64,000 nucleotides of DNA from Octopus vulgaris (Eukaryota). The first letter of the stretch is position 1, and every line of letters starts with the position of its first letter. Below are positions 4,712-54,428 of this stretch, in pieces. Location of the stretch: positions 69,874,001 to 69,938,000 of the forward strand of contig OX597832.1 in assembly GCA_951406725.2 (NCBI GenBank), given 5' to 3'. Both the position numbers and the translations under genes were made by a program. The notes beneath the pieces are model-generated. The model was not told the origin of the DNA. It searched no databases and saw only the letters and a program-made list of their open reading frames with translations.

Positions 4712-4815
4712 CCGGAGTAAACACATAAATGTGAAACAAGGTGGAAAAAAGAGTACTCAAATACCAGTGGTAGAGTAATATGCTTTATTTTAAGCAGCAG
4801 AAAATTCAACAAAAT

Positions 4816-4853
4816 CTGTTACTCTGAGTTTCTCGTTGCCGTTCATCAGACAG
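4816..4853 (-). ncRNA. Minimal type I hammerhead ribozyme in the PLE 3' pLTR (sense to the ORF)
   Basis: Reverse complement reads CTGT-CTGATGA-aCG(GCAA)CGa-GAAA-CTCAGAG-TA-ACAG: intact core, GNRA-capped stem II, palindromic stem III, GUA site. Confidence 0.85.
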
Positions 4854-7630: not shown

Positions 7631-7668
7631 CTGTCTGATGAACGGCAACGAGAAACTCAGAGTAACAG
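7631..7668 (+). ncRNA. Minimal type I hammerhead ribozyme (copy in the inverted pLTR)
   Basis: ctgt ctgatga acggcaacga gaaa ctcagag ta acag, identical to the 4816-4853 copy. Confidence 0.85.
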
Positions 7669-7701
7669 ATTTTGTTGAATTTTCTGCTGCTTAAAATAAA
7701 G

Positions 7702-7732
<31 letters not shown>

Positions 7733-9646: not shown

Positions 9647-9845
9647 GCACAAGCCCAGCAATTTCGAGGAAGGGGCTACGTCGAATTCATGGACCCTAGT
9701 ACTCAACTGGTACTTATTTTATCGACGTTGAAGGAAAAAAGGCAAAGTCGACCTCGGCGGAATTTGAACTCAGAATGTAATGAAGGGCGAAATATCACCA
9801 GGCATTTCATCCAGTGTGCTATCAATTCTGCCAGCTAGCTGCCTT
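9647..9845 (-). mobile_element. tRNA-derived SINE with a Nin-like central domain
   Basis: Reverse complement has box A (TGGCAGAATTG), box B (GAGTTCAAATTC), then GAGGTCGACTTTGCCTT...GTCGATAAAATAAGTACCAG. Homologous to the copies at 21640, 54590 and 63372. Confidence 0.8.
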
Positions 9846-12751
<2,906 letters not shown>

Positions 12752-12752
<1 letters not shown>

Positions 12753-12930
12753 GGTGCCCACCTGCAGGGTCACGCGCTGCTTATCTTGATACGCGATCAC
12801 CATGTTGCGCAGATATGGTTGTGCTGCATGTGTCTAGTGTACGCTTATCAGATAGTTGGGTATATTGGGCTTCGTATATTTGTACTCGAGTGTCGCTTTG
12901 ATGGCATGCGCTGCTCTCTCACTCACTCAC
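12752..12930 (+). mobile_element. Truncated, diverged copy of the ~530 bp (AAT)n-associated non-coding repeat
   Basis: Reverse-complement homology to 13590-13750. Ends ...GCTGCTCTCTCACTC followed by (AAT)n. Confidence 0.8.
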
Positions 12931-12977
<47 letters not shown>

Positions 12978-13316
12978 TCTATAAGGTTAATGACACCATA
13001 TACATGAATGTGTGCTACCTCGAAATGCAACAGATAGCAATAGGCCTCCAGTCGACCCAAAATATCTAAATTATTGAAGGACATACTGTAGAATATCGAT
13101 ATTAAATAGGTTATAAGAGATGGGGATGGCCATGGTGGAACAACTTATATCATAAATTTGGAAGCAAACGGATAATCAGACACAATAATAGCAATTATTA
13201 ATTCTACCAACACTAAACTACATCCCCTAAACACTCACCAAAACCATCATGACTGCCGTTACTACTGTTACTACTACAATTACTACAGGTCTCGCTGTTG
13301 TTGCTGTTGCTGCTAA

Positions 13317-13589
<273 letters not shown>

Positions 13590-14117
13590 GAGTGAGAGAG
13601 CAGTACATGCCATCAAAGTGAAGCCCAGTATACCCATCATGACTACCCGTCTGATAAGGTTACACTAAGCACATGCATTACAACCATATGTGCGCGACAT
13701 GGTGAACTCATATCAAGATAAACAGCGCATGACCTTGCAGGTTGGGCCCAGTTAAAATTTTCTTCTGGTCGAGTAACACATCCCGCTCAAAGGGTCCCTG
13801 AATAAGGATTGTTTAAGGATGTTGAACGAACCACACATGTTTCCAAAGGTGAATTATCCAAACCTCCAAGAATTCTTTTCAACACACGGCTATGATGCTA
13901 CCCCACTACTTCTGCTCACGGTCAGAGATGCACATATCATCAGCCACTAAGGGACATGGTCAACTGGTAAAGGTCAAACAACTGACAAGCAAATCTGTGG
14001 TATTGAGCAGAATATTTGCTGTAAGCCCTTCTTTTATACCAAGACAAAACAATGTACATGATAACACTTCCAATCAGTTTAGATCAGAAGCCATGAGAGC
14101 CACTGTCTGGTACTGCA
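13590..14117 (-). mobile_element. ~530 bp non-coding (AAT)n-associated retroposon, copy 1
   Basis: Similar over its full length to 14136-14667, bounded by (ATT)n on both sides, no meaningful ORF. Confidence 0.8.
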
Positions 14118-14135
14118 ATTATTATTATTATTATT

Positions 14136-14665
14136 GAGTGAGAGAGCAGTGTAAAATATACGAAGCCCAATATACCCATCATCACTACTCGTCTGATAAG
14201 GGTACACCAGGCACATGCATCACAACCAAATGTGCGCGACATAATGATCTCATATCAAGATAAACAGCACATGACCTTGCAGGTGGGGCCCAGTTAGAAT
14301 TTTCTTCAGGTTCAGTAGCCCATCCCGCTCAAACGGTCCCTGAATAAGGGTTGTTTAAGGATGTTGAAAAAACCACCCATGTTTCCAGAGGTGAATTATT
14401 CAAACCCCAAAGAATCCCTCTCAATACATGGCTATGATGCTCCCCCACTACTTCTGCTCGTGATCAGAGATGCACATATCATCAGCCACTAAGGGACATG
14501 CTCAACTGGTTAAGGTCAAACAACTGACAAGCAAATCTGTGGTATTGAGCAGAATATTTGCTGTAGCCCATCTTTTATACCAAGACAAAACAATGTACAT
14601 GATAACACTTCCAATCAGTTAAGATCAGAAGCCATGAGAGCCACTGCCTGGTACTGCATCAGGGC

Positions 14666-14667
<2 letters not shown>
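14136..14667 (-). mobile_element. ~530 bp non-coding (AAT)n-associated retroposon, copy 2
   Basis: Tandem partner of 13590-14117, separated from it and from the Dong-type LINE by (ATT)n. Confidence 0.8.
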
Positions 14668-17023
<2,356 letters not shown>

Positions 17024-26005: not shown

Positions 26006-26036
<31 letters not shown>

Positions 26037-26039
<3 letters not shown>

Positions 26040-26918
26040 TCAACAATATTAAGGAATGGCCTTGATAGGCCATTCGACCCACTAGAAAGAGCAGCTAAAC
26101 TCAAACCGTTAAATAGTTGTAATTCAGAAACCAAAGGAAAATAAAAACATTTACCCCTATCATCTTTGGACTATGCATAGTTTCGACATACATATTGGCA
26201 AACCGATTTAATTAAGTTAAATTAAATCTATTTGCCACTGGCCTGTCTCGTATTTTCCTTTGGTTTCTGAATTACAACTAGTTAGCGGTTTGAGTTTAGC
26301 TGCTCTTTCGAGTGGGTCGAATGGCCTATCAAGGCCATTCCTTAATATTGTTGAATGTATATTATATAGTCTGTTGACTATTTTTTCTTTCTCACTGGAC
26401 CGCTGGTGGCGAAAAATTTCTCTTGAATTTTTTGCTACCCTGATATTGATTAATTAATGATTTTTTGGCTAATTCTGAAATTAAATCAGCAGATTGTATT
26501 TGCTGCTAATAAGTTGGCGCGGTGACGGTAGATTTTGAAAATTTAGAATATATATTCTCAAGGCGTCGATGCTGTCGCCTCGTTGATATATATTTCCCTG
26601 GCTTCTTTGCTGACGAGACAGGCCAGTGGCAAATAGATTTAATTTAATTTAATTAAATCGGTTTGCAAATATGTATGTCGAAACTATGCATAGTCCAAAG
26701 ATGATAAGGGTAAATGTTTTTATTTTCCTTTGGTTTCTGAATTACAACTATTTAGCGGTTTGAGTTTAGTTGCTCTTTCTAGTGGGGCGAATGGCCTATC
26801 AAGGCCATTCCCTAAAGTTTTTGAATGAATATTATATAGTCTGTTGACTATTTTTTCTTTCTCACTGGACCGCTGGTGGCGAAAAATTTCTCTTGAATTT
26901 TTTGCTACCCTGATATTG

Positions 26919-26923
<5 letters not shown>
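26037..26923 (+). mobile_element. HHR-bearing non-coding mini-element: inverted 5' copy plus ~1.4 tandem units of a ~470 nt monomer, in (TA)n
   Basis: 26037-26250 is the reverse complement of 26614-26828. 26251-26450 is directly repeated at 26721-26920 (period 470). HHR at 26604-26701. Confidence 0.85.
26604..26701 (+). ncRNA. Type I hammerhead ribozyme with extended stem II
   Basis: TCTTTG-CTGACGA-GACA..(insert with a GCAAA..TTTGC hairpin)..TGTC-GAAA-CTATGCATAG-TC-CAAAGA. GUC site, palindromic stem III, stem I extendable (CCCT/AGGG). Confidence 0.85.
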
Positions 26924-26962
<39 letters not shown>

Positions 26963-27049
26963 AAGGGTGGAAAGGAACACACGAGTTGATATATATGAAA
27001 AAACAAGTCAAAAATAGAAAATGCTAAGATGATTTTATAGTGAATCTTT

Positions 27050-27087
27050 CAGTACCGGTTTCGGTCATTTTGAGACCTTTTCAACTG
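27050..27087 (-). ncRNA. Minimal type I hammerhead ribozyme, U3-A8 core variant
   Basis: Reverse complement CAG-TTGAAAA-GGTC(TCAAAAT)GACC-GAAA-CCGG-TA-CTG. Confidence 0.75.
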
Positions 27088-27371
27088 TAACGATTAAATA
27101 ATTAAATTTTGAAAAATTTAGAAAAATTAGAAGAAAGGTTTTTTTAAAGGAATACTTCCATAGTAGTGTTCAGATATATGTGGCATTCTGCCTTTCTCTG
27201 ACTCCCTTGTTTGCACTTGTGTATTCGACCTCGAATACACAAGTGCAAACAAGGGAGTCAGAGAAAGGCAGAATGCCACATATATCTGAACACTACTATG
27301 GAAGTATTCCTTTAAAAAAACCTTTCTTCTAATTTTTCTAAATTTTTCAAAATTTAATTATTTAATCGTTA

Positions 27372-27409
27372 CAGTTGAAAAGGTCTCAAAATGATCGAAA
27401 CCGGTACTG
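27372..27409 (+). ncRNA. Minimal type I hammerhead ribozyme, U3-A8 variant (second arm)
   Basis: cag ttgaaaa ggtc tcaaaat gatc gaaa ccgg ta ctg, with one G-U pair in stem II. Confidence 0.72.
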
Positions 27410-27455
27410 AAAGATTCACTATAAAATCATCTTAGCATTTTCTATTTTTGACTTG

Positions 27456-27506
<51 letters not shown>

Positions 27507-33420: not shown

Positions 33421-33688
33421 GAATATGAAGTGCACATTCTTTAGGGAAATTACATTTTCAGAACATACAAGCATAATAATATCAACAACAACAACAAAAA
33501 TAATGATAATACTATACACATTCTACATATTCTATATGTGTATATATATGATTCTAATCCAGAAACGTACGTCCATAATAAACCGAAAACTGTTTCATTT
33601 CATTATTTCCTTTTTTTTTTTGCCATATGTGAGTTACAAATATTGTTGTCTGTGGAGACATATTTTTGTGAAAAACAAAATACTAGTA

Positions 33689-34012
33689 ATTAATTGTTAT
33701 CGCCATATTAATATGGCAATCTTATAGATATAAGACTAAAAGCTGTCGCTGATTAGCTCCATGAGGCCATCGCCTTAAGATAGTTATTTGACACACAAAC
33801 TGTGTCCATTATAACCTTCGAAGGTTATAATGGACACAGTTTGTGTGTCAAATAGCTATCTTAAGGCGATGGCCTCATGGAGCTAATCAGCGACAGCTTT
33901 TAGTCTTATATCTATAAGACTGCCATATTAATATGGCGATAACAATTAATTTCCAGTAACGCTGCCGTAATCTCTTTTACAGAGACTTAGTAATTTTGAT
34001 ATTTCTATTATT
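33689..34012 (+). mobile_element. Palindromic mini-insertion with a 3' tail and 12 bp TSD
   Basis: Spacerless palindrome 33688-33951 centred on TTCGAA (about 2 mismatches), tail 33952-34012, AAAATACTAGTA repeated at 33677-33688 and 34013-34024. Confidence 0.8.
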
Positions 34013-34121
34013 AAAATACTAGTACTTTGACTGCTTTTTCTTAAATTTTCGGTATGTGGTCAAGCACCTTGTTGCAAAACCCTTTTTGTTATAATTATCT
34101 ATCTATATATCTATCTATATA

Positions 34122-34385
34122 AAGGGTAAAGACCCCCTTCGGTCATGAATGACCATGGGATTGCACCTAGAAAGTTACCCTCCTAGACACAAGTCCGGGC
34201 AAGGTTGTTTATGGAAGACCAGCAGTCGCCCATGCATACCAGCCTCCCCTCTCCACGCCACCAGTGTTTATCCAAGGGAAAGACAAAGGTCGATACAGCT
34301 TGGCACCTGTGACGTCGCAACTCATTTCTACAGCTGAGTGAACTGGAGCAACGTGAAATAAAGTGCTTTGCTCAAGAACACAACA
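34122..34385 (-). mobile_element. SINE (same family as 32850-33183), 5' head missing
   Basis: Direct sequence similarity to the 32850-33183 copy. Confidence 0.75.
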
Positions 34386-34405
34386 TATATATATATATAT
34401 ATATA

Positions 34406-34782
34406 CTAGCAGTATCGCCCGGCCTTGCTCGGGTTTGTTTCGACCCTTTAGAATTGGAATTAAAATTTTGAATTATGTAGCTTGTTATTCTCTTTAAGTG
34501 AACATTTTTCTGGTTGAAATACACCGAAAAATGGCGACACAGCAGTCAAAAAATCGTAAAAAAAAAATAGGGATTTTCATAGAAAAAAAAGCACTTTTTT
34601 GATGTAAATAATTTTTGGTCTTAACATGGTCCGATTTGAATTTTTTTCTTCTACGGAAGGAAGAGCAAGCCTTCTTCTATCATACTCTCAATTTTGGTCA
34701 ACTTGCGCCGCAGGGTCTCGGAGGAGATAGTGTTAGTTGAAGGCTACCAAACCTGCCATACACAGACAACTTCAGCTTTATA
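34406..34782 (-). mobile_element. Non-autonomous Helitron A
   Basis: Reverse-complement 3' end CCCGAGCAAGGCCGGGCGATACTGCTAG (hairpin plus CTAG). 5' end ..TATAAAGCTGAAGTTGTCTG. Confidence 0.8.
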
Positions 34783-35148
34783 CTAGCAGTATCGCCCGGC
34801 GTTGCTCGGGTTTGTAAGGGAAATAACTATAAAGCATTTTTAGATAGTTATAGCCAAAATATAGCAAAAAAATGGGGAAAAAATGATGGTAAATTTTTTT
34901 GAGAGTTAAAAAGGTGGAGTTGCGTCCCCTAGACAGTCTGTGGTTTGTGTTTCTGATTCTCGACCCCATGTCGAATTTATCGATTTTTTTCAGAACTGGG
35001 GGAACTTTTCAAAATTTTCGCTGCGTTAGTTTTGAATTATGACATTGGGCTATGTGTGTGTCAAGTTTCATCAGAATCGGTTGAAAGCCGTGGTCAGGGT
35101 GAGGGTACAACCAAACAGACACACAGAAACACACACAGACAAACTGCC

Positions 35149-35165
<17 letters not shown>
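34783..35165 (-). mobile_element. Non-autonomous Helitron B, sharing its 5' sequence with the autonomous Helitron
   Basis: Same 3' hairpin plus CTAG as element A. Its body is the reverse complement of 36384-36580 joined to 36955-37006. Confidence 0.88.
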
Positions 35166-35193
<28 letters not shown>

Positions 35194-35544
35194 TGAATAT
35201 ATATATATGTATTATGTATATGTAAATGTACGCATATATATATATATATATATGTATATATATGACTTAATATACATACACATAAATACATACATATACA
35301 GTTGCATTTATGAGTGCCTTTGAGCGTTCATTTTCATCGCTAGTTCTATTCTAAAGTTGAAAGGTAAATTTCAAGAGAAATATAATTTACCTGAGTGCTA
35401 AACGCTTTCATGTCGCTAATTTATGTATTAAATTTACAGTGCAGAATCAAATTACTTAAATACCGCCAATTATCCAATGTTTCCGATAACTTGCATCACA
35501 CAATTTTTGTTTATCATTATTTTTGTTGTTGTTGTCGTTGTTGA

Positions 35545-35595
<51 letters not shown>

Positions 35596-36377
35596 AATTA
35601 TTATTATTATTCCTATTGTTTTTGTCGTCGCATTCAGATTATCTGTCGCAAGAATCAACGTACATATCAAAGTTAGACATGAAATTATCACTAAATGCTG
35701 TTAAACAATCATCATTAATATAACCAAGGTTGTCATCATTGGAAACATTGTCGACATCCTCATCATCATCATCATCATCAACTTCGTCGTCTTCATCATT
35801 GTCATCAGTCATGATCACCATTACCCATTATCCCCAACTAATCTTCGAAAATATTACCAGACAAGGAACCCAAGAGAGTAAAAAGCAATGCAATGATTCT
35901 TTCTATCTGCTGAAATTAGTAAGAAAAATCAATCCCTTTTATATTATGAGGAGGCAAAGATGCCTGTAACTTGGAAAATCGAGCTTTAGATTACAGACAA
36001 ATGACAGTTTCATCCCATTAGATTCATCTTTAACATTTCGTGTTCTTAATTAATTTGACCTGTGGATAAACAACAACATCCTCACCGTTAACTATATCAA
36101 TCCCAAACAAGAGGCCGGGCCTTTATTGTTCTGCTAAGAATTGCAACCATATCAGCCATAAAAACAGCTTACTGAATCTCAAAGCTGAAGACCACATTAG
36201 CTGCTCTGTTCCTCATCCCAATGGTTCGCAATGAGGGAGGTGCAAGACCTTACCTAATATGTTTTATTATTTTCATGTCCTGAACGCTATTTATTTATCG
36301 ATACAATTTTATTTTTAATCCTTTTACAAAGCTTCTGAAGTATTTTAACAGCATATTTTAATTTAAATTTGTTTTCA

Positions 36378-39300
36378 TCTCTCTATATATAAACGGCAGT
36401 TTGTCTGTCTGTGTGTCTGTCAGGTTGTACCCTCACCCTGACCACGGCTTTCAATCGATTCTGATGAAACTTGACACACACATGGCCCAATGTCATAATT
36501 CAAAATTAACGCAGTGAAAATTTTGAAAAGTTCCCCCAGTTCTGAAAAAAATCGATAAATTCGACATGGAGTCGAGAATCTAAGCTTTTTATATGCAACA
36601 CATTTTCTGTCGTAGTTTTCGCAACTTGCAATCGATTTTCACCAAACTCATGGTGAAGCTTAATGTTACCCTAAGAAACTTAATTCTGACGTTAGTTTTC
36701 CATGCAATACCTTACCATCAGAAAAGATCGATAAAATCATGCCATTTTGGGAAATCGCGTTCGAATTCAAGATTACGTATTTTCGACAATATCTTTCACA
36801 AATTGCCAGGATTTTTTTTTTTAATTCACAGCGAGCATCACGTCTGCTCCAAGGAGCTATATGGCCCTTTTTATTCCAATAGGATACTTTATTACTGGAA
36901 AAAATCGGTTAATTAAATTATATGTGGCACACATAGCAAACCGATTTGTGTATTAAACACAAACCACAGACAGACTAGGGGACGCAACTCGACCTTTTTA
37001 ACTCTCTTACACTCCCAAATAACTATCAAACTGCTATCGATAATTCAACCCAACCAATTGCTACCAGGAAGAAATTACATTCGAGACTTTACCCCCAACA
37101 CCGCCACTTCTGCTAATAGCTGCTGCAGCCGCAAGTTATTCGAATACTTTTTTGTTTAAACTTTCTTTATAACTACCACCCCAAACGTTTTACCTTAAAT
37201 TTTTGACGTACCTTAAGGGTCCTCGGACACTACTTGCAAACTCTTGGTTTATTATAAGCCGCTTTTGTCGTGTGCACCAAAAAACCTTTTCCATTCGTTT
37301 GTTCAGTTTGGTCACTTTTGACTTTTTCGTTGTTGTTACTCACATTGGTGCCCGCTTTTTTTGCCGTTTTTGTACATTTTTATACATTTTGGGATACTTA
37401 CCCCACGTGTTCCTTTTTATTACACCTTTGCCAAACACATTGCTATCCACCAAAATGCCACCCAAGAAGACAAGGACCCTCCTCAGCCCTCGAACGGCCA
37501 AGGCATCGGCTGCTAGGGCTAGAAGGGCACGCGAGACCCACGAGGAAACCGCCTTGCGCCTCTCGCAAAAAACTTCCCGTTCTGCCGCTGCTCAGGCATC
37601 TGAAACTACTAGCGACCGTTCTACCCGAGTTGCAAGGGCCGCAGCGTACAGATCTTCCCTCCGCTCGAGGTTGACGAAAGAGCAACAGTCCAGCCAAAAC
37701 ATACGGGCTTCTTCCTGTGCTTCCATCCGCAGAGCTCGCAAGAAACCCGAACAAAGGGCCATTCGGAATGCGGCTAACGCCACTAGCACCGCCAGGACAC
37801 GATCTGTCGAAACCTCACAGCAGAGGCGAATTCGCCAAGCTGCTGACGCCGCAAACACAGCCATGGCCCGATCTGCCGAAACACCTCAACAGAGGAGAGT
37901 TCGCCAAGCTGCTAACGCCGCAAACACAGCCATGGCTCGATCTGCCGAAACTCCAGACCAACGAACTATTCGGATATCCAGAGATGCCATTAACACTGCT
38001 TCTGCTAGGGCTTCAGAGGGTGCTGAGGCGAGAGCTGAAAGGCTTTCAAGGGATGCCACTGTACCGCTGTCGCACGCGCATCTCAATCTGCTGAGGCACG
38101 GCGCACTCGACTTGAGAGTATCAACCAACGTCGGGATATCATTCGTGGTGTACGTACCCCTGCCCCCGCTTTCTGGTCGTCACTAGCATTCAACTACGAC
38201 GCCACAATTAACTTCTCCTTGCGTGACGACATCAAGATAGGGTCAATGACAATTGTATGCCAGTTTTGCAAAGCCAAGAAATGGCCCGGAGAGCCACCTG
38301 GTTTGTGCTGCTCTGGTGGCAAAATAGACCTGCCACCCCTACGGGAACCACCTCAACCACTGAAGGATCTCGAGGCGGGTTTAACCCCCGAATCGTCACA
38401 ATTCCTTGAACTCAACCGAAAGTACAACTGCTCATTCCAAATGACCTCTTTCGGGGCCAAAATTCCTCCTAGAGAAGGCTGGATGCCTACTTTCAAAGTG
38501 CAGGGACAAGTCTACCATCTTATTGTGTCACTTCTGCCAGACGAGATTCAGCAGTCTTCTATCCTCCAAATCTACTTCATTGCCGACTACAACCAGCAGG
38601 TTGATGCACGCCTTGGAATAATACCGGGTACATGCTATGTTCCCCGCAAAGACGTTCTTCTCCGTCTCCAAACCATGCTTCATGATATCAACAGCTACGT
38701 CTGCAGCTTCAGGTATGCCTTGGACAGTGCTCCGTCTCCAACCTTCACCGTTGTCATTGATGCTGATAAACGACCCCACGGGGAGCACGAACGCCGTTTT
38801 CAACGCATCTGCGTGCAACGAAATTGCCGCAGTCATACACGGAGAGCAACACAACAGCCGTGACATAATCATTTCCTCCCGTGGTAACAGCCTACGCAGG
38901 ATCAGCGAGACTCACAGATCTTATGACGCGCTTCAGTATCCATTGCTTTTCCCTGATGGGAAGACGGCTACTACTTCGGAATTCCTTTACGGCAGCCCTC
39001 CAATCAAACTACTGCGGCATCAAAGACGGTTTCCTGCAGGGCGTTCTACTCATACCGGTTCATGGTTAGGGAGGGTGAGTTCAACTTATTGCCCCGTTGT
39101 CGTCAGCTATTCAACCAGTTCGCCGTCGTCATGGCCGCCAAAATGGAATCGGAAAGGCTGCTATACATTAAGCTTAATCAGACCAAACTTCGCTCCGTCT
39201 CCTACATTCATCTCCGTGACGGCTTGCAACAAGAAAATGACCCTCGCAACATTGGAAAGCCATGCATTCTACCCTCCACCTTCACGGGAGGACCGCGATA

Positions 39301-42300
39301 TATGCGTGAAAGGACCCAAGACGCCTTGACCTACGTGCGCATTTACGGCCGGCCGGACCTCTTTATCACCTACACGTGCAATCCCAACTGCGACGAAATC
39401 ACTCGCGAACTCCTCCCGGGTCAGTCTCACACCCATCGACACGACATCGTTGTTAGGGTTTTCCGTCTGAATTTGGGCAAAATAATGGATTTGATAGTTA
39501 AGGGTCACATTTTCGGGCATGTCACGTGCAAAAGAGGGGCTTGCCACATGCTCACATCTTAATTTGGCTAACTAACAAAATCGAGACGAATGACATTGAC
39601 AAATTCATTTCCGCCGAGATTCCTGACCCCGATGAGGACCCCGAACTGTACGAAATTGTCCGCACTACCATGGTACATGGGCCCTGTGGACAAAATTACG
39701 CCAACACACCATGCTGCAAAAACGGATTAGCCTGCTCAAAGGGATTCCCTAAATGGTTCACTTTGGAGACTCAAACAGGCGGCGATGGGTATCTGCTGTA
39801 CAAACGAAGGAGTCCAGCCAATGGAGGCCGCACGATTACGGTTGGGCGACATCAAGTGGACAACAGCTACATTGTCCCCTACTGTCCTCTCCTGTCGAAG
39901 ATATTCAAATCCCACGTCAACGTTGAGTTCTGCAGCTCCATCAGGTCAATACAATATGTCTGCAAATATAACAACAAGGGCAGCGATGCTGCCATGTTCA
40001 GCATCCAGAGGACCACCAGTCGCGACGAAGTGTCCAACTACTTGGCAGGCCGGTACCTCAGCAGCAACGAAGCGTTTTGGCGCATTTACGGCTTCCCGCT
40101 CCATCAGAGACACCCGGCTGTGGTGCAGCTTGCCGTACACTTGGAAAATGGACAGCGGATTTACTTCACAGAGAAAACTGCTGCGCAGGTATCCACCAAC
40201 CCTAAAGACACAACGTTGACCGGTTTCTTCAAATTATGCCAACGTGATGACTTCGCTCGAACGCTTTTGTACCCCCAGGTTCCATCGTACTTCGTGTGGT
40301 ATAACAACACCTGGGTTCGACGGAAATCCGGCAAAAACGTCGAAGGCTTCCCAGGTGTCAAGTTTGACTCCTGACTGGGTCGAGTTTACAACATCCCGCC
40401 AAACCAGCAAGAATGCTTCTACCTCCGTCTCCTTCTACTTGAGGTTACTGGTCAACAGGTTTCGGCAATATACGTACCGTCAATGGGGTTCTGTGCGACA
40501 CCTTCAGGGAAGCATGTCTGAGACTTGGCCTTCTAGAGGATGACTCCCAGTGGGACGCCACTATGGCAGAGGGCGCTTAACTGCAAACGCCTTCGGCCAT
40601 ACGACATCTTTTCGCAATCCTTCTTCAAAAATGTCAGCTTAGTGACCCACTAAGTCTCTGGATGAAATACAGGGATGACAAGTCGCAGGACTTCTTACGT
40701 ACGGCTCAGCAACACTGCCCTTCCGTCGATATCACATTCACCAACTTCATTTACAATTTTGAGCTTATTCAACTCGAAGACGCAGTCATCGATATGGGTG
40801 GCTCTGCTTTAACGGAGTACGGCCTTCCACCATCCACACGTGAACACTCCAATGTTATGTCTGCTGAATTGTTACGCGAAACTTCCTACTGCATTGAGGA
40901 ACTGCACCAGTACGTCCAAGCTAATGAACCACGACTGCTTCCAGACCAGCGCATAGCCTACAACACCATCGTAGACTCTGTCAGACAGCAACGTAGGGGG
41001 ATTTACCTCTTGACGCACCTAGCGGCACTGGCAAAACCTTCGTCACGAAACTAATTCTGGCGGAGGTCAGACGCAACACGGACATTGCCCTGACTGTAGC
41101 TTCCTCTGGTATCGCGGCCACGTTGCTTCCGGGTGGCAGAACCGCCCACTCTGCCTTCAGACTCCCGCTCGATCTGACAAAGTCCGAGTCACCTATCTGC
41201 AACATCGCCAAGAACTCAGAACAGGCCGACATTCTGCGCAGATGCAAACTCATCGTATGGGACGAGTGCACTATGGCACACAAAGGCGCCCTTGAGGCAC
41301 TGGACAGGTCCCTGCAAGACATCAGAGACTCTACGGGCCCCATGGGAGGATTGACTTTACTTCTTTCAGGAGACTTCAGGCAGACTCTACCTGTTATTCC
41401 AAAAGGAACCCGTGTCGATGCCGTGCGCGCGTGCCTTAAGTCGTCAGCTCTTTGGGCACATGTGCGGCCCTTGCACCTCCAAACTAACATGCGCACGCAG
41501 TTGATTGGTGACAGCGGATCCGCTGCATTCTCCAGGGACCTTTTATCGCTCGGTGAAAATAGGATGCCGTTGATGCGGATGGCTGCGTTCAATTGGACTC
41601 ACTTTGCACCACTGTCGACACCCCTGCTAGCCTCCGGGACGCTGTCTTCCACAACCTACAAAACAATTTACGCGACCTAAAATGGCTGGCAGGCAGAGTT
41701 ATTCTCGCACCCAAAAATACAACCGTCAACTCCATCAATATCCAGTTACTTGAAGTTATTCCTGGTGATGTCCACGTCTACAAATCTATAGATAGGACAG
41801 CAGACCCCGCCGAGCTTGCCGATTATCCTGTTGAATTCCTGAATTCACTTGAACCGCCAGGCCTGCCGCCACACATCCTGAAGTTAAAAGTCGGTGCGCC
41901 CATTATGCTCATCAGGAATTTGGTTCCACCTAAACAGTGCAACGGCACACGTCTGGTTGTGAAACATTTGGCACCACATTTAATAACGGCCACAATACTT
42001 ACCGGTTGTGGGAAAGGAGAGGACGTCTTCATTCCACGCATGCATCTTCAACCGTCGGGCGCTGACCTACCAATCCACTTCAGGCGTTCTCAGTTTCCTG
42101 TTAAACTCTGCTTCGCAATGTCCATCAATAAATCCCAAGGCCAAACGCTACAAGTCGCTGGGTTACATTTGGGCGAACAGTGCTTCGCCCACGGTCAACT
42201 CTACGTGGGCTGTTCACTTGTTGGGAGGCGCAATGATGTTTTCATGTTTTTGCTCAAAGGGACAGCTAGGAACATCGTATACACAGAAGTATTCGAGTGA

Positions 42301-44149: not shown

Positions 44150-46090
44150 AAGAGAAAACCAGTATTCTGCAGTATTCCTGAATTTGATAAGCCTACCATT
44201 TGCAACATAAATGCACGTGACTGTTGAGGGCAGAAGACCGAGGTGTCACCTGTGCATGGTGACATTCATGCCAAAATCATCACTACCTCCAGCGCCGCCG
44301 CCGCCACCACTACCATCACCACCACTACTAGCAAAACCTAATCCACACTCACACAACAGTTTGGTCAGAAACCCTAACACGAACAACATTTAAACATCAT
44401 CAACTACATTGCCACGAACACAGCTATGAAAGAACTAATGGAATACATACACAACTATACTCATCACATTTCATCATATCGCAACCTACGCACAAAAATC
44501 ACACAAATAGCATAAAACACAGAGAACACATTAAGAAAAGAAATAACCGGACAGGGAAGAAAATTTTGTGAAAAACGTTGAGAGAAAAACTTGCAAAGAA
44601 CTACTTGTGGAAAAGCTAATATATAACCAGAGGGTTGTAACGCCTATCCCCGTTCCTCATAAAACTGCTCTATGTATCTCTCTCCTCTTCTCCCACTATT
44701 TCATTGTCCAACATGACCTTGCTCAGAAAAGGCAATATAGCTATACGTAGCACGGGTCACCTTGAAGTCACCTACTCAGTGACCTCGGGCCACAAAGTTT
44801 AGATTTCGTGGCTATCAGTGATGTCATACTCTCCAACCGACAATTTTTCATACTCATTTCTGCGGGATACGAGATTTACATATCTCCATGATAACGCGGA
44901 ATGGGTGGTGTAGTACTGGAGTGGTCTTAATCAATATAAGGGTCATCGTCCTGTATCGAAAAGGTAAGTTACTGGTCCTGCGCTTGAACAGTAGCGCCGG
45001 GCGAGCTTTCAGACGAGTGACTCTTTATGTTCCGACAGAAAGAGAAGAGCTGGATTTTTTCAGATATCTGGAAGTTCTCCTGAGAACGTCTCGACCTTTA
45101 GTGTTAATGGGTGACCGGGATGCCATCTTGAGCGCACGCTTAGATTGGTGGGCATCGACAAAACACATCGGGCACTCTTAGTTGTATGAAGATAGATGAA
45201 CCTATAGGCCACCAGCTAAGGATAGTATAATTAGTCCAATTTTTAAAACCTACTGCTACATAGAACACGAATTTGCGAACTTCACAGTCGACTTCGATAG
45301 ATTTAGTACGCAGGAACCCGGTTACTGGAAGCTGCACGCATCAGGCCCAGCGTGCCAAATTTACAGAGACCAAATTAGCAAATTAGATGGGGTCCATCAA
45401 CAACAAATGGAGTTCTGCTTGAAAAGGGCAATTAGAATAGAATCAGTAAGTTTTATAAATGAATATTCTGCAAGTCCATAAAATGAGAATGGATAATTGG
45501 TCAGAATTCAAATTTTAGCCTAGGTTGATAGTAGAAATTGTGGTGTTAGTAATCGAAGAAATGATTGGTGATGCAGAAATGAGCGCCACCCCAAGCAGAC
45601 ACAAAACAACAACATCCACCTCATGCGGTACAAGATGGTCAAAGAAGTTAGCATAGGTTGGGATCCGATCAGTCTAACGCTTTCGACAAGGTCAACTATA
45701 ATACTTGATGGCCGTTCTCCTGCCGGCCGGCAATATACAGCGATATCTGCTCGGTAGTTCCGGTGAATGTTTATCGACCATAACCATTCGGCATCTTGCT
45801 CTGGGTCGGTGAAGGGTGTCTTTTCTCGTCTCTTTTGTATGTACTGGTTCTATAGCCACTGCTGCGGAAATTGGAGGCATTGAGAGGCGTCCTGTGTAAA
45901 GTAGGATGTGGAAGAACTCTGCTGCCATACGCAGACGGCCTCTCCGTTAATATGTCGAATGCCAGTTACTTAGACCTGGTTGGTACTTCTCTAAAAACAC
46001 ATGAGGTAGCAACAGGACCAATACTTAACCAAGGAAAATTAGGGGGTTTGAGGCACGGGACATGGAGAGGCATATCCACGCCGTCCAATA
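44150..46090 (+). mobile_element. Heavily decayed Tx1/L1-clade LINE
   Basis: Colinear fragments matching the 46.7 kb element: VTVEGRRPRCHLC (ORF1), GKLLVL..LVLMGD (APE), PGYWKL, DQSNAFDKV, LLYVLVL*PLLRKLE, YADG, GLRHGTWR. Confidence 0.8.
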
Positions 46091-46435
46091 ACGACATTAT
46101 ATATATATACATAATTCTTATACAAGTAAAAAAATGTTGTTCACAGTGTACTGTATAATTCGTATACAGTACAAGAATATTGTTCACAAATTTTCGGTCA
46201 GCTAAGCAACAGTCAACAATATTCTTGTATAAGAATGATAAATTTGTACGCTACTAAACTATATAGTAACCCATCGGATTGATGTAAAATTGTTTTATTA
46301 TAACGTAAAGTGTACTAGCCATCTGAATGTGGCTAGCCACTGGGGGTGGAATGTTACTGATGCTTTTAGCCCCAGGAGATCAACGTCACCAGCTGGCCTT
46401 AGACAGGTCATCCTCCCTCGAAAACCTAAGTGATA

Positions 46436-46480
46436 CATACGGACTATAGTTTCAAGGTAATTGCCTCTCGTCAACGCATG
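46436..46480 (-). ncRNA. Type I hammerhead ribozyme (inverted, uninterrupted copy)
   Basis: Reverse complement CATGCG-TTGACGA-GAGG(CAATTA)CCTT-GAAA-CTATAG-TC-CGTATG, with a long stem I extension spanning 46405-46510. Confidence 0.8.
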
Positions 46481-46978
46481 GTAAACACCGGTTTTCGATG
46501 AAGGAGACTTTTACAAATTTAGAAAAACTGATGGCTAGTACACTTTACGTTGTCGAGCGGTTACTGTTTATATCTCGTTCAAGGATTTATTAATGCTTTC
46601 AGACAATTTTTCTAAATCAGTGACAGTGGTTGCTGTGAAAAACGTTAAATATTATTATTTGTAAAGGTCTCCTTCATCGAAAACCGGTGACTTTTGAATT
46701 TTTCCTCGGAAGTATACCAAATATTTTTCTGTTGCTGCAAATCGTTGTGCGAGTTCGTTTCCGTTTGTCTACTTTGTCGTGTTACACGTAATATCATTGT
46801 TGAACTGTTTTTGACCCAGTAAATTTCGCCCTTCCGGGTAGAAAATTTCTGTGTGTTTTTTTGTGTGAACTCTTAACCTGTATAGGTTATTTTTGAAAAA
46901 AATTCTCTTGTCATTTGTGACAAGTTTGTGTTGTCTAATATGGAATTAGACTTAAGTTCATAAAAAGACTTTCCCGAC

Positions 46979-48458
46979 ATGGGAGAAAGTATAACAACTG
47001 TTAAACAAAAGGAAACACAGGCAAAACCCAGTTTTTCAGACGCCGTAGGTGGCGAAGTCGAAGAAATGGAAGTGTCAATGGAAAGACTATTCAAGTTCAG
47101 ACCGCTGGTGCAAAAAAGTGGTGAAGAAACACGATTGGTACCGCCCCCCGAAACTATACAGGCAATAAAGTAAAAAATGGTCACCTACAAGGTGTACAAT
47201 ATTAAAGAAAAACGAATGACCGACGTAAAAAACGAAATGGTCGAAAAGTGTATGGCTCCAATATGGAGTAAAGTTAGTCATGTCAACCGAGGTGCAAGAA
47301 GCGCTACAGTGGAGGCGCATTTTGAGACGGTGGAAGTAGCAAGGCAAATTTCGACACAAACGTTGAAAAACGAGAATATAATACTGCTACCCTTATATTT
47401 AGGATGCAGAACCGCAAAAGTGTCCCTAGAAGATATACCAACGGGCTACGACGTGATGTGGGCGGCAACAGCGGTCATTTTTGATGTTGAATCAAAATTG
47501 ACAATGTTGAGTATGAAGAGGAAAATTGCAAAACACTGGAGAGGCCAGCAGCTGGAGATGATAATCCAGGCGGAAAATGCGACGTTGGAAAGCCTACCAG
47601 ACAGAGTCTTCGTGGGGGAGGGGCAATCCATACGAGTTTCGGTGGAAGGACGCAGGCCCAGATGTTTTAAGTGCGGGCAAAAGGGCCAAGTTCGCTCCGT
47701 TTGCACAAAAAAAAATAATACGGGCAACGCCCCCCCACACACACACACAAAACGCTGTGAAGAACGCAGAAAGCAGCAAAGTGGAGAACAAAGTAACGGC
47801 TGGCGAAAGCAAAGAGGAAAAAATAAACAGGTCGAACTCCAAAAAGGAGGAAGACAAGAACGAAAAGCAAAATGAGAAAGGAAAGGAGGAGGAAATTAAT
47901 GCAACAAAAACAAATATACAAGAGGACATGGAATTCACGAACGTGTCGAATAAAAGGAAAAAATCCATCACCCCTGACTCCCCACCCGTATCAAAAAAAA
48001 AAAACAACGCAGTCGAACAAATTAAAAATATTCTCCAATCCCACTCCGGCGGTACTACACTTATAGGCCAGCACTTTAACAAACCCCACCCCCCAACTGT
48101 AAAAGGGTTTAAACCCAATGAAAAAATTATTGCATACACCACAAAGAACGTGAGAGTATCAACATGGGTGCAAGTAAGTACGCTGATCAGGTGCTACAAA
48201 GCGACCGAGAAGGAAGCGGAGTGGCGATATGGAAGGGTCGGCGAAGAAGGATGGAAAGACAAAACCTTACAAAGCCACGTAAAAGCTGGCTTCATTAAGG
48301 ATGTCACCCATGAGGTGATAACTGGGAAGTTACACGTCAGCCCGGCAGCCACACCAACCCAGAGCCCGGTGGCAACGCCGGTGAAACACCCAGCAGCAAC
48401 GGCGAGTGGGGGGGAGACAGGCAGAAAGAATCTGTCAGGCTCCCTCTCGCAACCGTGA
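46979..48458 (+). pseudogene. LINE ORF1 (gag-like, zinc knuckle) with an in-frame stop at 47171 and a frameshift near 47710-47750
   Basis: ORFs 46979-47173, 47177-47875 and 47577-48458. IRVSVEGRRPRCFKCGQKGQVRSVC is a CCHC motif with H changed to Q. Confidence 0.85.
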
Positions 48459-48480
48459 GTAAATAATTTTCTTTTTCTCG

Positions 48481-51400
48481 ATGATTAAGTTAGGTTGTAT
48501 AAATGTGCGTGGAATGGGATCGAAATGGAAACAGGCTTGTTTTCGGGACGACCTCATTTCACATAGAATCGATGTGGCTATTGTTACCGAGTCCAAGATG
48601 AAAGGACCCCAAGCGTTCTCACCACTTCTCAATGGTTACGAGAAATTTATTTCTCCTAGCCGGGAGGGAGGTGCAGGCGTGGCAGTTCTTTTCAGGAAGA
48701 ACTTGGACTTACAGGTAAGTACTGTCTTTTTGGACCCAGAAGGTAGGCTGGTTGTCCTAGATGTGACGCACGTGAGTAAGCAGTCTTTCAGGTTTGTGGC
48801 TGTCTACGCTCCTAATGGACGTGGGCAGACCGGTTTTTTCGGGAACTGGAGCACTTTCTAGTGACGTCCAAAACGGTAGTCTTGGTAGGGGATTTCAACA
48901 CCATTTTCGATGCGCGGGTGGATGGTGTAGGCTCGAGCGATAGGAAGGGGAATCCTGGCCTCAAGGCTCTACTAGCGAGCTTTAATCTAGTAGACCGTTT
49001 TCGACTGGATGAGCCGAACGTTCCACAGTGGACGTGGAGTAATAACGACGGCTCACGCAGATCGTACATAGATAGAATATTTGTTAAGGAACGAGATAGG
49101 AATAGTGTTAGCTGTCCACAATTCTCTGTTGTGCCTTACACGGATCACAAACTTGTAACGTGTGAGGTACATGTAGATAAATGCCATAGACAAGGTCCCG
49201 GGTACTGGAAGATGAACAAGTCTATTTTGACCTGTGAAGCTTTCCGTACCCGGATTAAGGAATTAGTACAGAGGGCATTATGTGGCACCATCATTAATAA
49301 TAGATGGTGGCTCGCCCTCAAAAGAGCCATCCGTGTGGAGTCCATTAGATTTAGCAAGCAGCTAAGTTTAGATAGGACTAGAATAGAGGGCGAATTAGTT
49401 AAGAACTTAGACGAGGCTATGGAATCTGGCTGTGCATCCGGAGTGTTGGCAGCGAGAGCGGTATTGTACCGTCACCTCAACGCCAAGCACGAGGGGTGTA
49501 GAGTCAGAGCTAAGTTACGTGCAGGAAAACGAGAAGGTATTAACGTTGCCGGATGGGCCCGTCGTGAGGAGAGTCAGAAGGGCAAAAAGTCCTGTATTAT
49601 GTCCTTAACTGACGAACAGGACCGCAAGATCTATGGACAGGAGGAGATGCAGAAGGTCCTTCACCAGCATTTCGCACGGCTGTTTGGGGACGGTGGTCCG
49701 CTCGAGCGTGGGGAGACCTTAAAGGACTTCCTAGCTGGTGGGCCTCGGCTCTCGACAGGTGAGGCGGAGTGCTGTGAAGGATCGATCTCTCCCGCAGAGG
49801 TAAGAGGGGTTATGGCCGAGTGCGCCGGGGAAAAGTCGCCGGGATTGGATGGTCTACCCTATGAATTTTATTGTTGTATGCCGGACTTGTTCGGGGACAT
49901 ACTGGCAAGCGTCTATGCAAACTGGCAACAGAATGGGAGGATTCCCAGCTCTGTGAGTCGGGGAGTTGTGACGCTGGTCCAGAAAGACCCGAGCAAGGGG
50001 GACAGTATTAGTAATTACAGGCCCATAACTCTACTTAATGTAGAGTTTAAGATTTAGGCCAAGGTGTTAGCAAAAAGGTTGACGGCTGTCGTGGAGAAAC
50101 TTGTCGGGAAGGCACAGACATGTGCAATCCCAGGCAGGTCGATCCAGGATAATCTTCACCTTCTCCGCTACACTATAGATAGGGTCGGGAAATTAGACGG
50201 CAAAGGAGGGACATTGGTCCATTTAGACCAAAGTAAAGCGTTTGATAGGGTAGACCATCGGTACTTGGCGGCGGTTCTCGAAGCGGCTGGGCTGGGCCCT
50301 GGCTTCTGCGGGTGGATCTCAGCTATGTACAGCGGCATCAAGTCCACAGTCCAGATAAACGGTTACCTAACGGAGCCGTTTTCGATCAAGCGTTCAGTTC
50401 GTCAAGGGTGCCCCTTGTCCCCGCTCCTGTATGTTTTGGCTCTTGAGCCATTGCTGCGGAAGCTGGAGAAGTTGGGAGGCAACCCTAATGAAATCGGATG
50501 CGGTAAGTCTGTTTCTGCCTATGTGGATGACGTCACCCTCATCGTGTCCAACGGAACACAGCTACCTCGGGTAGTAGGTGCTCTCCATAGATACGAAGCG
50601 GTGGCAGGGGCAAAAGTTAACAGGGACAAGTCCATCGGTTTGCGCCTCGGCACCTGGAGGAACAAGCCGATACCGCCCAGTGTTGTTGGACACTGGACGG
50701 ATGGTCCTGTTAAATTGCTCGGAGTCTGGTTTGGTCCAGACTCCCAGACGGAGAAGAATTGGAGCGAGGTAACGAGCAAGGTGGATGCCATAGTACGGAA
50801 GTGGTCCGGAAGGCATCTTTCCTTGAAAGGGAGGGCGGAGGTGGCACAGATGTTTATAGCCTCTGTCGTCACCTACCGCCTGACCGTCGTGCCTTGCCCC
50901 GATTCGTGGTTAAACAAGTTGGAACGACTCCTTTTCCGCTTTTTGTGGAAAGGAGGAAAGCCACTTGTGAGACGCTCCGTGTGTTGCCAGGAACCGCTAA
51001 AGGGTGGACTGGGGATGCCTTGGCTAATGATGCGCAAGCATGCGTTGAGGCTGAGACACCTCTGGTGTTACCTGGAGGATGATAAGGTGTGGAGTTCGCT
51101 GGCTGAGGAATTCTTCCCGCGACTGGCCTCTATGGAGGGATTTACACCCGGTCTCATTAAAGGACGTAAACTGACTTCATGGCAGAAGGAGTGCCGACAG
51201 GCACTCTGGCTGATCCACAAGATGGGTAAGGCCGGCAGCGGGAATACCACCTCGGTGTTCTATAAAGGGTTGGTAGAGTGAAAAAATGACGACGTCCTAG
51301 GAAGGGCTCTGGCGTTCGATGAGGATCAACTCTCCAACCTGTTTAAGAAGACTTTCAGGTCAGGGTATTTGGATAATTACCAAAAATCCCTGACCTGGCA

Positions 51401-51869
51401 GTGCTATAGGAATGCATTACCTGTGCGCGAGAAGTTATTCAGGCACGGAATGTCAGTGCCACCGACGTGTCCAAGATGTGGGTTGGACGATGAAACCGTT
51501 CAACACGCTTTTGTACAATGTCGGGAGCTGTCAGGCTTGATAAGTTACGTTGAACACGTGTTGTCGCATCTGGGACGAGTACAGCTGTCGGCTGGATCTA
51601 TGATTAAGATGATACCGCCAACTGGACTCTCAAAGGAAGGTAAGGCTTGTTTTTACTGTACGGTGGCAGTATTGAAAGAGTGTGTATGGAGAACTAGAGT
51701 GGAAGGTCTAGTGAAAGGGTCCTTTATCTCTGGCCCCGGTTTGTTAAAATACTTCGGATATCATCTGAAGAGCAAGATGGGGTTGGAGAAGAGGAGCCTG
51801 CCACAGCAAGAGTAAATGGAACGTTGGAAGGATGTGATGAGAAAGGTGGGTGAGAGTAACCCAGCTTAA
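48481..51869 (+). pseudogene. LINE ORF2: APE endonuclease, reverse transcriptase and zf-RVT, with one frameshift and three premature stops
   Basis: CINVRG, GVAVLF, VYAP, VGDFN, SYIDRIFV, TDHK, GYWK, KSPGLDGLPYEFY, NYRPITLLN, LDQSKAFDRV, VRQGCPLSPLLY, AYVDD, CPRC..ETVQHAFVQC. Confidence 0.95.
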
Positions 51870-52247
51870 TCATCGAGGAAAGGAAAAATCAGCTGCTGGG
51901 ATTTATAGGCTGCCGGGTTCAAAATTGAAACTGGTACCTCCCATTACCTTTCACTGTACATAACTGTTTAAAATAAAGAATTAATATTAAAAAAATAAAA
52001 GAAAAGAAAAGAAAACATACGCACTAAAAGTTCTCGTGATAAAGGCAAAAGTAAGCCAAGGTTTCGTTTCAAGGCAAAGTAAGCCAAGTTTTCGTTCAAG
52101 TTACATAAAATTTTATTTTTGTAATTTTTATAATTTCATTCGAACTCGCATAGCATTTTTGTAATTGTTTTGTCCTGTAATGTACCCATTCTATGTTAGA
52201 TCTATTGATCATAATAAAGATAACCTTCATCGAAAACCTGTGTTTAC

Positions 52248-52292
52248 CATGCGTTGACGAGAGGCAATTACCTTGAAACTATAGTCCGTATG
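52248..52292 (+). ncRNA. Type I hammerhead ribozyme immediately 3' of the Tx1 LINE
   Basis: catgcg ttgacga gagg caatta cctt gaaa ctatag tc cgtatg. GUC site, palindromic stem III (ACTATAGT), stem I extends through the TSD (52224-52323). Confidence 0.8.
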
Positions 52293-54428
52293 TATCACTT
52301 GGGTTTTCGAGGGAGGATGACCTCCCTTTGCAAATAACACAAGGGCACTGAAATTTTGTGTCTAAGGCCAGCTGGTGACGTTGATCCCCTGGGGCTAAAA
52401 GCATCAGTAACATTCCACCCCCAATGGCTAGCCACATTCAGATGGCTAGAACACTTTACGTTGTCGAGCGGTTACTGTTTATACCTCGTTCAGAGATTTA
52501 TTAATGCTTTGTTTTATTATAATTGAACATAAAAACTAACATTGATATATGTATGTGTGTGAATGTATGTATTTATGAAGGGTTCTTTTCACTTCCTGTC
52601 TACTAGATTGACTCAAAATGCATTGGTCAGTCTGTGAGTGTATTAGAAGGACGTTTCTGAAGCTGCCAAAGGCTATGGGAATAAATCTGTAACCACACGG
52701 TTCCAATGCGAAAATTTTCTGCAGATTCAATGCAAAAATGCACAATATTTACTCCAGTATGTTTTGAACACAGAACGTGAAACCCTAGAATAAACACCAC
52801 CAGGCATTTTCCGATGCTTTAATGACCTGAAAGTAATTCGAAGAAAAACTCTGACAATACACAGAAAAAATTCATAAAATATTTGCGTCTATTATTGTTC
52901 ATGTTTTTGTATTTCTTCAAAGGATTCAATACTAAAACGTGTACAAAATAACAATTCAAAAACACTAACTCGATTATTTCTGCTAAAAAGAGATATAACA
53001 TGTTAGAAATCGCTCATGTTTTATGCATGTATATAAAATATAGGTTATTAAATAATATTAAGTGTTTCAATACTTGGCTTTTCACATTAGAAAACTGAAA
53101 ATGTCCATAGATATTATGGGAGTCATTTTCTCTCTTATTAAGCAGATAGCAACAGGTTTGTGACTATATACAAACATATGCAAATTATACTATCGGAACT
53201 GAGAATAGTAACGTTTACGAATGCAGATATGTACATACATACATACATACATACATACATACATACATACATACATACATACATACATACATACATACAT
53301 ACAAGTTCATTCCATCCCACATCCAAGGATATCTTTACGCAGTTCTGTTCAGGAAAAAGAAAAACTCTACAAATACCTACTGCACAAAAGAGGAAGGTCA
53401 ACAGTTCACATTAAATGTAGGCTGAGCAAAGATAGATTGAAAATGCTAGCCACATCACCTCCAACTGTGAAAGAATGTCTTCTCTTTATTAACTCCTCGT
53501 GAGACATGCTGAAACAATGAGATGCACAAGCAGAGAGGTAACCACAGCGATGACACTCTGCACACAGCCTCATGAAGTTCACAAGTAGTTCTCACTGCCA
53601 CGCAGCTGTGTGCTGCCATCTCTTGGCTCGATACAGAACTAGTCCGGGAACTTTATGATACTCTCTTGTACAATCAAGTAGAGGGGAATACTTTGAGACT
53701 GGTGAGCCAAATACATCCTAGTGGAACGTAAAACTAAAAACTCCCACCAAAATTAAACAAAATCGGTCTAATAGTGTTGTTTGGGATGAAACATTAAAAT
53801 CGTGCTCTGACATAAAAATCAGCTGCCAACAATGATGTCAGTGTGGTAAGAAAAATGCAAGAGAAGGAGGATGTCTAAAAAAACTATTGATTAGAAGTTT
53901 GCAGATCCAGCATCCAAGACACCTGTTAGAACTACATGTTATATACCAACCCGCAAGGACCAAGGCATAGATTTATGGAGAAAGGATATCGGCCCTTAAT
54001 TCATAACATATAAATGGCCGCCTACACAAGCAATAACAATTACCTTTTCTTTACAATCTTGCCGCTGGGAAGGCGGCCGATTGAAAATAAACTAGAATTT
54101 AAAATCGTGAACATGCATAAATACATACATACATACATACATACACACACACGCACACACGTATGCACAAATACACACGCAGACACCACACACACATATA
54201 TATGTATATATACATGACCGGACTCTTTCAGTGACAGGGCTTTGGTCGACCTGATGTTATCGTAGCCCAGAGTGACACGCTATGAGACCGAACCCGGAAA
54301 AATGTGGTTGTGAGGCAAACTTCTCCCCACACAACCGCGTCTGCGATTATACATAACGAATCTGCGTGTGTGTGTGTGTGTGTGAGTATGCATACTTTAT
54401 ATACTTCTACGAATGTGTGCACATGTAC

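Follow-up and report, generated by a model that had tools for sequence, protein, structure and literature searches.

A non-coding repeat with a predicted hammerhead in Octopus vulgaris shows the insertion layout of Penelope-like elements and harbors a nested LINE

We analyzed a stretch of 64,000 nucleotides from the Octopus vulgaris genome (GenBank assembly GCA_951406725.2, contig OX597832.1, forward-strand positions 69,874,001 to 69,938,000), referred to here as the window and used as the coordinate system throughout. At 46290..52522 this microsatellite-rich animal DNA of 36% GC contains an insertion built from a 358-bp repeat that carries a predicted type I hammerhead ribozyme and is interrupted by a long interspersed nuclear element (LINE). 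The account that we favor, with a confidence only slightly better than even, is that the non-coding hammerhead repeat was inserted in trans by a Penelope-like reverse transcriptase (RT)/endonuclease that copied an RNA longer than one unit, most likely an uncut tandem transcript. Its more general part, namely that the element is non-autonomous and was mobilized by a Penelope-like element (PLE), we consider likely. If PLE mobilization is granted, we lean modestly towards a linear tandem over a circular template.

Results

Excision of the LINE together with one of its target-site duplications (TSD; 5,553 bp in total) leaves a forward copy of 428 bp. The only period in it is 358 bp, and its terminal redundancy shows 66/70 identity. 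This recurrence had been noted in a preliminary description of the same DNA and is confirmed here, as is the presence of an inverted copy in front of the forward one; the deletion in the inverted copy, given previously as about 35 bp, measures 36 bp (52323-52358) and is accompanied by 5 substitutions in 217 positions. The two copies are arranged head to head with their 3' ends outward, and they stop at unit positions 380 and 428. Division of the 70-bp redundancy into a 22-bp partial tandem and a 48-bp tail was derived from the end point of the inverted copy. The apparent 11-bp gap between the copies (46519-46529) is also unit sequence: positions 46517-46527 are the reverse complement of 46607-46617, and the step to this stretch skips about 41 bp at an AT microhomology. 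Predicted hairpins fall within each of the two stretches missing from the inverted copy (36 and about 41 bp); these losses may represent polymerase jumps or a shorter variant of the family.

The outer duplication (46290-46303 and 52509-52522) is an exact 14-bp match that occurs just twice in the window. The probability of such a match by chance is about 2e-6 at local composition, and the best match among 5,000 random position pairs was 8 nt. A 14-bp TSD around the whole structure had been proposed before and holds as a sequence match; the innermost 2 nt on either side are shared with the element, which puts the true length at 10-14 bp and means microhomology at both 3' ends. Neither outer end carries an A tail. 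The unit has a GC content of 41.9% and, in agreement with the earlier reading, no open reading frame (ORF), the longest ATG frame in the doubled unit being 52 codons. The period, redundancy, outer duplication, inverted copy, hammerhead motif and nested LINE are all real features of this insertion.

In PLEs, the published layout comprises a partial tandem, an adjacent inverted 5'-truncated copy and a tail of 30-40 bp at one end (PMC8557442). In vitro, a PLE protein acts on AT-rich DNA by cutting and extending the two strands, starts reverse transcription at two internal RNA sites 3' of the hammerhead, which delimit the tail, and uses uncut RNA, so that hammerhead cleavage is not needed (PMC11167929). 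The octopus locus displays the partial tandem (pseudo-long terminal repeat, pLTR) with the adjacent inverted 5'-truncated copy, and a one-sided tail that is found at the forward end only; at this one locus it measures 48 bp, slightly over the quoted 30-40 bp. The RT and GIY-YIG ORF of an autonomous PLE is absent from the unit, which holds no ORF. Judged from its sequence, the layout of 46290..52522 is the published PLE signature.

The forward copy of 428 nt passes the predicted hammerhead cut site (unit position 204) and then runs 204 nt beyond it. The ends of the insertion lie 176 and 224 nt downstream of the predicted cut, and neither coincides with it. Because the forward cDNA exceeds one unit and crosses the cut site, its template would have been circular or tandem and longer than one unit; a cut linear monomer could not have served, since the cDNA runs through the predicted cut site. 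The preliminary description had likewise deduced a circular or tandem template from the presence of more than one unit, and to this extent it was right. Nothing in the structure singles out a circle, and the proposal made there of circular RNA as the source is not upheld in that form, given that the redundancy and inverted copy are a standard PLE footprint and the ends do not fall at the cut site.

A structural descriptor detected one type I hammerhead per copy and no other in 64 kb, against a background of 0.13 matches per shuffle at loose settings and 0 in 30 shuffles at strict settings. The single hammerhead previously assigned to the unit is matched by one sense motif, with a second on the minus strand in the inverted copy. 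Stem I of the forward motif has 6 bp, stem II has 4 bp and a 6-nt loop, and stem III has 2 bp and a palindromic loop, the 8 nt at 52278-52285 forming a perfect palindrome. Its loops presumably recall those of the Schistosoma hammerhead. Stem I extends into a long closing helix (z -2.8), and the predicted circular fold of the unit is 60% paired (z -2.2, 60 shuffles). Free folding returned neither the catalytic core fold nor the dimeric stem III; this is not counted for or against the motif, as free folding commonly misses the catalytic fold when hammerhead stems are this weak. A search of the 64 kb against Rfam gave no match at the gathering score and no hammerhead at E up to 10.

Both copies share two departures from the consensus core, U3·G8 and G10.1·U11.1, so the template probably carried them. 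According to PMC3088659, C3 and G8 form a pair with U3-A8 as its covarying form, and conservation is high at 10.1-11.1; a natural hammerhead core with U3/G8 is mentioned in PMC7151607. Together with the absent Rfam score, the two departures would speak against activity of the predicted hammerhead.

These features bear on the possibility that the same PLE machinery used a 358-nt circular RNA, produced by double hammerhead cleavage of an array transcript followed by ligation. Such a template would also give a cDNA that crosses the cut site and exceeds one unit. The canonical stem sizes, the circular fold and the 8-nt palindrome, which would allow a dimeric hammerhead, fit this scheme, and the palindromic arrangement of stem III has been linked to dimeric cleavage (PMC4209133). 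The size and GC content of the unit resemble those of expressed mussel circles (PMC7229834), and a natural core with U3/G8, as in the first of the core departures, is on record (PMC7151607). However, the core departs from the consensus at two points, and circle and cleavage are both predicted only. Moreover, just one of nine predicted Xenopus retrozyme dimers was cleaved in vitro (bioRxiv 10.64898/2026.07.22.740005), and PLE insertion in vitro takes unprocessed RNA (PMC11167929). We therefore regard a circular template as a rather unlikely source of this insertion. Double cleavage could not release a monomer from the locus itself, as it has one sense hammerhead.

For other copies of the unit we used Logan contigs from 4 of the 24 listed runs, aligned to 46530-52440 at 82% likeness. 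Joints are cited from among those listed (12 of 53 with extra letters, 15 of 257 plain joints and 24 of 2,666 loose ends); the lengths of their sides are not given and may be 17 nt. Summed contig depth, which is not a copy count, reached 138 and 178 thousand on 52272-52440 in two DNA-type runs versus 2-7 thousand on the 5' part of the LINE, and shows that the unit family is very abundant and present in high copy. Among the joints listed, run X1 contains an empty-site joint from 46653 to 52224 (depth 83.5) and joints from unit end to unit start (52440 to 46532/3) at depths of 124 and 67, the latter type occurring in run X6 at a depth of 69. These joints confirm the unit outside the locus, without thereby revealing a second full unit. 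None of the runs listed as containing the unit is recorded as RNA; X14 and X11 are presumed to be, but as they consist of contigs, their cover of the unit was not taken to indicate expression or circles. No matches resulted from exact-pattern scans of metagenome_contigs, viral_contigs and genome_contigs with the unit, as expected for animal DNA.

In run X1, depth at 46657-46665 is 9-14 thousand, several times below the 36-62 thousand at 52354-52367. Truncation at the 5' end would fit this, as would an autonomous partner with a different sequence in that part. If the repeat were just the pLTR of an autonomous PLE, with a locus that is 5'-truncated or internally deleted and a 358-bp period due to local rearrangement, many copies would differ 5' of the hammerhead hairpin and such a drop would follow; 24 of 2,666 loose ends are listed, so ORF extensions could be hidden among the rest. 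Yet the drop also fits ordinary 5' truncation. The inverted copy also includes sequence from the AT-rich part, the joint of 46653 to 52224 means that in another copy the AT-rich part precedes the hairpin outside the locus, and the unit contains no ORF remnant. On this evidence a mere pLTR is improbable. Animal retrozymes have been derived from PLE pLTRs, and the terms 'retrozyme' and 'non-autonomous PLE' probably denote one and the same kind of element (bioRxiv 10.64898/2026.07.22.740005), which makes the choice between a retrozyme and a pLTR drawn in the preliminary description weaker than it looks.

The LINE inside the unit is one that we take, from its domain order, to belong to the L1/Tx1 group. 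Its ORF2 matched Pfam PF03372 (first piece under the cut-off, second over), PF00078 and PF13966, corresponding to an AP endonuclease (APE), an RT and a zf-RVT domain. ORF1 gave look-alikes of zf-CCHC (0.90) and of a ZCCHC3-type protein (0.87), taken as a lead only. This would be the Tx1-type set of a CCHC ORF1 and an ORF2 with AP endonuclease, RT and zinc finger. Among the LINE matches listed, the best named relative of the RT is from Argonauta hians (61%), in keeping with an octopod host, and no named Tx1 reference was present. For O. vulgaris, 421 recent L1-Tx1 insertions with a mean length of 5.4 kb have been tabulated (PMC13282606, table 1); the length of our LINE is close to this mean, and ribozymes are unmentioned in the passages found of that source. 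Just upstream, at 44781-46088 and not at the hammerhead target, lies a relative from the same LINE group that is older and degraded (28-41% amino-acid identity).

The nesting, together with the recurrence of LINE-to-unit joints in the contigs, might be taken to mean that the unit is a SINE-like (short interspersed element-like) passenger or a 3' transduction of the LINE, and that the whole 6.2 kb is one LINE-made insertion. We consider this very improbable. The LINE has its own 19-bp TSD within the unit, and its insertion site is unoccupied in the inverted copy and in other copies, which largely refutes the idea. The same sequence is duplicated here, unlike in LINE twin priming, which gives non-overlapping inversions, and the outer ends lack the A tail of a LINE product.

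Contigs of runs X1 (organism A) and X6 (organism C) join the last base of the LINE, 52223, via one A to 46673, at depths of 298 and 282, respectively. This alternative joint corresponds to the same target entered 2 nt further on, with a 17-bp instead of a 19-bp duplication. The long contigs listed have depths of 65-111 and 29-53; by comparison, the joint probably represents several copies. It accounts for 21-24% (X1) and 8-15% (X6) of the depth at the LINE ends, in summed depth rather than copies. The threshold for target specificity in PMC4494074 is >20% of flanks in one repeat. The placement of the joint at the left TSD points to tandems of the LINE-TSD-LINE type or to branching behind the TSD. 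Alternatively, it could derive from one ancestral insertion that was later duplicated and mutated. From these contig sequences, we see about an even chance that the L1/Tx1-type LINE family targets the hammerhead repeat at this site.

Tx1-clade elements are known for recurrent entry at one site, and their targets include other transposons (PMC4494074). Among the best 80 of 385 distant LINE relatives in metagenomes we found no match to the unit and four weak descriptor matches. These relatives are mostly 27-43% identical (best 54%, on a short stretch) and thus too distant for the targeting to be tested with them. Our literature search yielded neither a report of a Tx1 family that targets a hammerhead or PLE repeat nor one of an octopus retrozyme; Repbase, subscription papers and bioRxiv supplements could hold either.

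Table 1. Features of the insertion (window coordinates)
Feature	Position	Strand	Remarks
Outer TSD, left copy	46290..46303	+	last 2 nt also match 3' end of inverted copy
Inverted 5'-truncated unit copy	46302..46518	-	unit positions 128-380; 3' end outward; LINE site empty
Predicted type I hammerhead, inverted copy	46436..46480	-	core same as in forward copy
Junction between inverted and forward copies	46517..46531	-	more unit sequence: 46607-46617, possibly 46599-46602
5' copy of 70-bp redundancy	46530..46599	+	22-bp partial tandem (46530-46551) and 48 bp recurring as tail at other end
AT-rich part of unit, up to LINE	46600..46689	+	46671-46689 is LINE left TSD and 5' arm of hammerhead-closing helix
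Full-length LINE, L1/Tx1 group (presumed)	46690..52223	+	5,534 bp; frames broken by stops/frameshifts; short A-rich 3' tract
LINE right TSD	52224..52242	+	19 bp, 1 mismatch; 11 bp before hammerhead core
Second part of 358-bp unit	52243..52440	+	
Predicted type I hammerhead, forward copy	52248..52292	+	core at 52254; predicted cut after GUC at 52286
3' copy of 70-bp redundancy	52441..52510	+	48-bp tail 52463-52510, at this end only
Outer TSD, right copy	52509..52522	+	

Elsewhere in the window, a separate PLE-like element at 4778-7706 has inverted arms of about 805 bp (96.8%) in a layout like that of the hammerhead unit insertion. Its ORF (6093-7073, minus strand) shows look-alikes of HTH_animal, GIY-YIG and RT with no Pfam match, and both arms carry a minimal hammerhead core (4849, minus; 7635, plus). 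A link between this element and the 358-bp unit was considered and rejected, as they share no sequence match (best 11 nt, E 0.56). The minus strand at 14919-16852 holds a further LINE RT, also with zf-RVT. Broken frames at 37173-42300, which by eye look like Helitron Rep/helicase, follow an inverted arrangement located at 33681-37006. Inverted repeats of 120-600 bp that lie nested at 26025-27502, 12757-14684 and 33681-33958 may be further PLE-type or MITE-like (miniature inverted-repeat transposable element-like) insertions. Positions 9844-12833 consist of about 3 kb of nearly pure trinucleotide microsatellite.

Discussion

The anatomy observed at 46290..52522 could have arisen as follows. A head-to-tail array elsewhere would be transcribed, and a PLE protein would cut AT-rich DNA on both strands, with about 10-14 bp between the two cuts. 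Each 3' end, with 2 nt of microhomology, would then prime reverse transcription at one of two internal sites, and the distance of 48 nt between these sites (unit positions 380 and 428) would produce the one-sided tail. One cDNA, 428 nt long, would cross the hammerhead and continue beyond the point where it began, the other would skip 36 and about 41 nt, and the two would be joined head to head. Later, an L1/Tx1-type LINE would have entered the unit 11 bp short of the hammerhead core, a position that its family probably prefers. The locus would be a dead-end product, with one sense hammerhead and a closing helix split by the LINE.

Several observations weigh against an uncut tandem transcript copied by PLE machinery. 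Divergence between the two 70-bp copies does not exceed that between the inverted and the forward copy (4/70 versus 5/217, p = 0.23), so tandem and circular templates are not separated by the locus. The unit does not match the sole PLE in the window, and no autonomous partner was found there or among the contig joints and loose ends listed; the tail of 48 bp exceeds the quoted 30-40 bp. No tandem array was seen among the contig joints listed, where end-to-start joints would also arise from single tailed copies; these joints were called at a likeness of 82% and come without side lengths. Finally, in its canonical, not minimal, proportions and its long closing helix the hammerhead resembles those of retrozymes that form circles, and circles do occur for mussel units of 350-390 nt (PMC7229834).

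Metazoan non-LTR (non-long terminal repeat) retrozymes are non-coding units of 150-450 bp with GC <50% and TSD >4 bp, and the octopus repeat, with 358 bp, 41.9% GC and a TSD of 10-14 bp, lies within these bounds. The size range claimed for it in the preliminary description is thus appropriate, and its type I hammerhead and long TSD fit as well (PMC7229834). With Mytilus (units of 350-390 bp) and other retrozyme hosts it shares a non-coding unit of GC <50%, a type I hammerhead with a short palindromic stem III, a TSD >4 bp and many copies (PMC7229834; bioRxiv 10.64898/2026.07.22.740005). It differs in comprising 1.2 units with one sense hammerhead, a 'monomer' in the terms of the preprint, and in the U3·G8 and G10.1·U11.1 departures of a hammerhead assigned by descriptor. 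Neither an inverted copy nor a one-sided tail is described for retrozymes in the available parts of these two sources. For the 358-bp unit, circular RNA and cleavage are predictions. Active retrozymes are required to have two hammerheads (bioRxiv 10.64898/2026.07.22.740005); having one in sense orientation, the locus is classed here as a PLE-type, non-autonomous insertion from a retrozyme-like family, likely an offspring.

With endonuclease-containing PLEs and their derivatives (PMC8557442; PAc of Anolis, PMC11167929; PMC4209133) the insertion shares the partial tandem, the adjacent inverted 5'-truncated copy, the one-sided tail 3' of the hammerhead and the AT-rich target; in contrast to them it has no RT/GIY-YIG ORF, a 48-bp tail and a hammerhead of canonical rather than minimal proportions. 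Non-autonomous elements have been named in Chlamys, MRC1 among them (PMC8557442). The octopus repeat adds one more member to a kind that occurs in many animals, and it is likely a small parasite of Penelope-like elements.

The nested LINE, tentatively placed in its clade by domain order, has in common with target-specific Tx1-clade LINEs an APE-RT-zinc-finger ORF2, a 17-19-bp TSD, another repeat as host and signs of a second same-site insertion. The targets given in the available parts of PMC4494074 are Tx1D for Tx1; Mariner-N4, Harbinger and LTR elements for crocodilian Tx1; and U2 for Keno; a hammerhead/PLE-type repeat lies outside them.

PLEs have been called a strong candidate for mobilizing animal retrozymes (PMC7229834), and the link has been argued from co-occurrence and from pLTR similarity (bioRxiv 10.64898/2026.07.22.740005). 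Which autonomous element moves animal retrozymes has thus been proposed, not shown. The insertion described here would be a mechanical footprint of PLE activity on a retrozyme-type unit, and it predicts two priming sites (unit positions 380 and 428) that lend themselves to counting in any host-group assembly. The value of the locus probably lies in this footprint and in the probable targeting by the LINE. Taken together, we see the chances as evenly balanced that an octopod L1/Tx1-type LINE has specialized on a hammerhead retrozyme/mini-Penelope repeat, entering it repeatedly 11 bp before the core in an arm of the closing helix, and that the locus provides direct anatomical evidence for the insertion of animal retrozyme units by PLE proteins. 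If the targeting is real, a ribozyme-bearing retroelement would join the targets of Tx1-type elements, a new endonuclease specificity would be added to those known, and the LINE would be a parasite of a parasite of Penelope elements.

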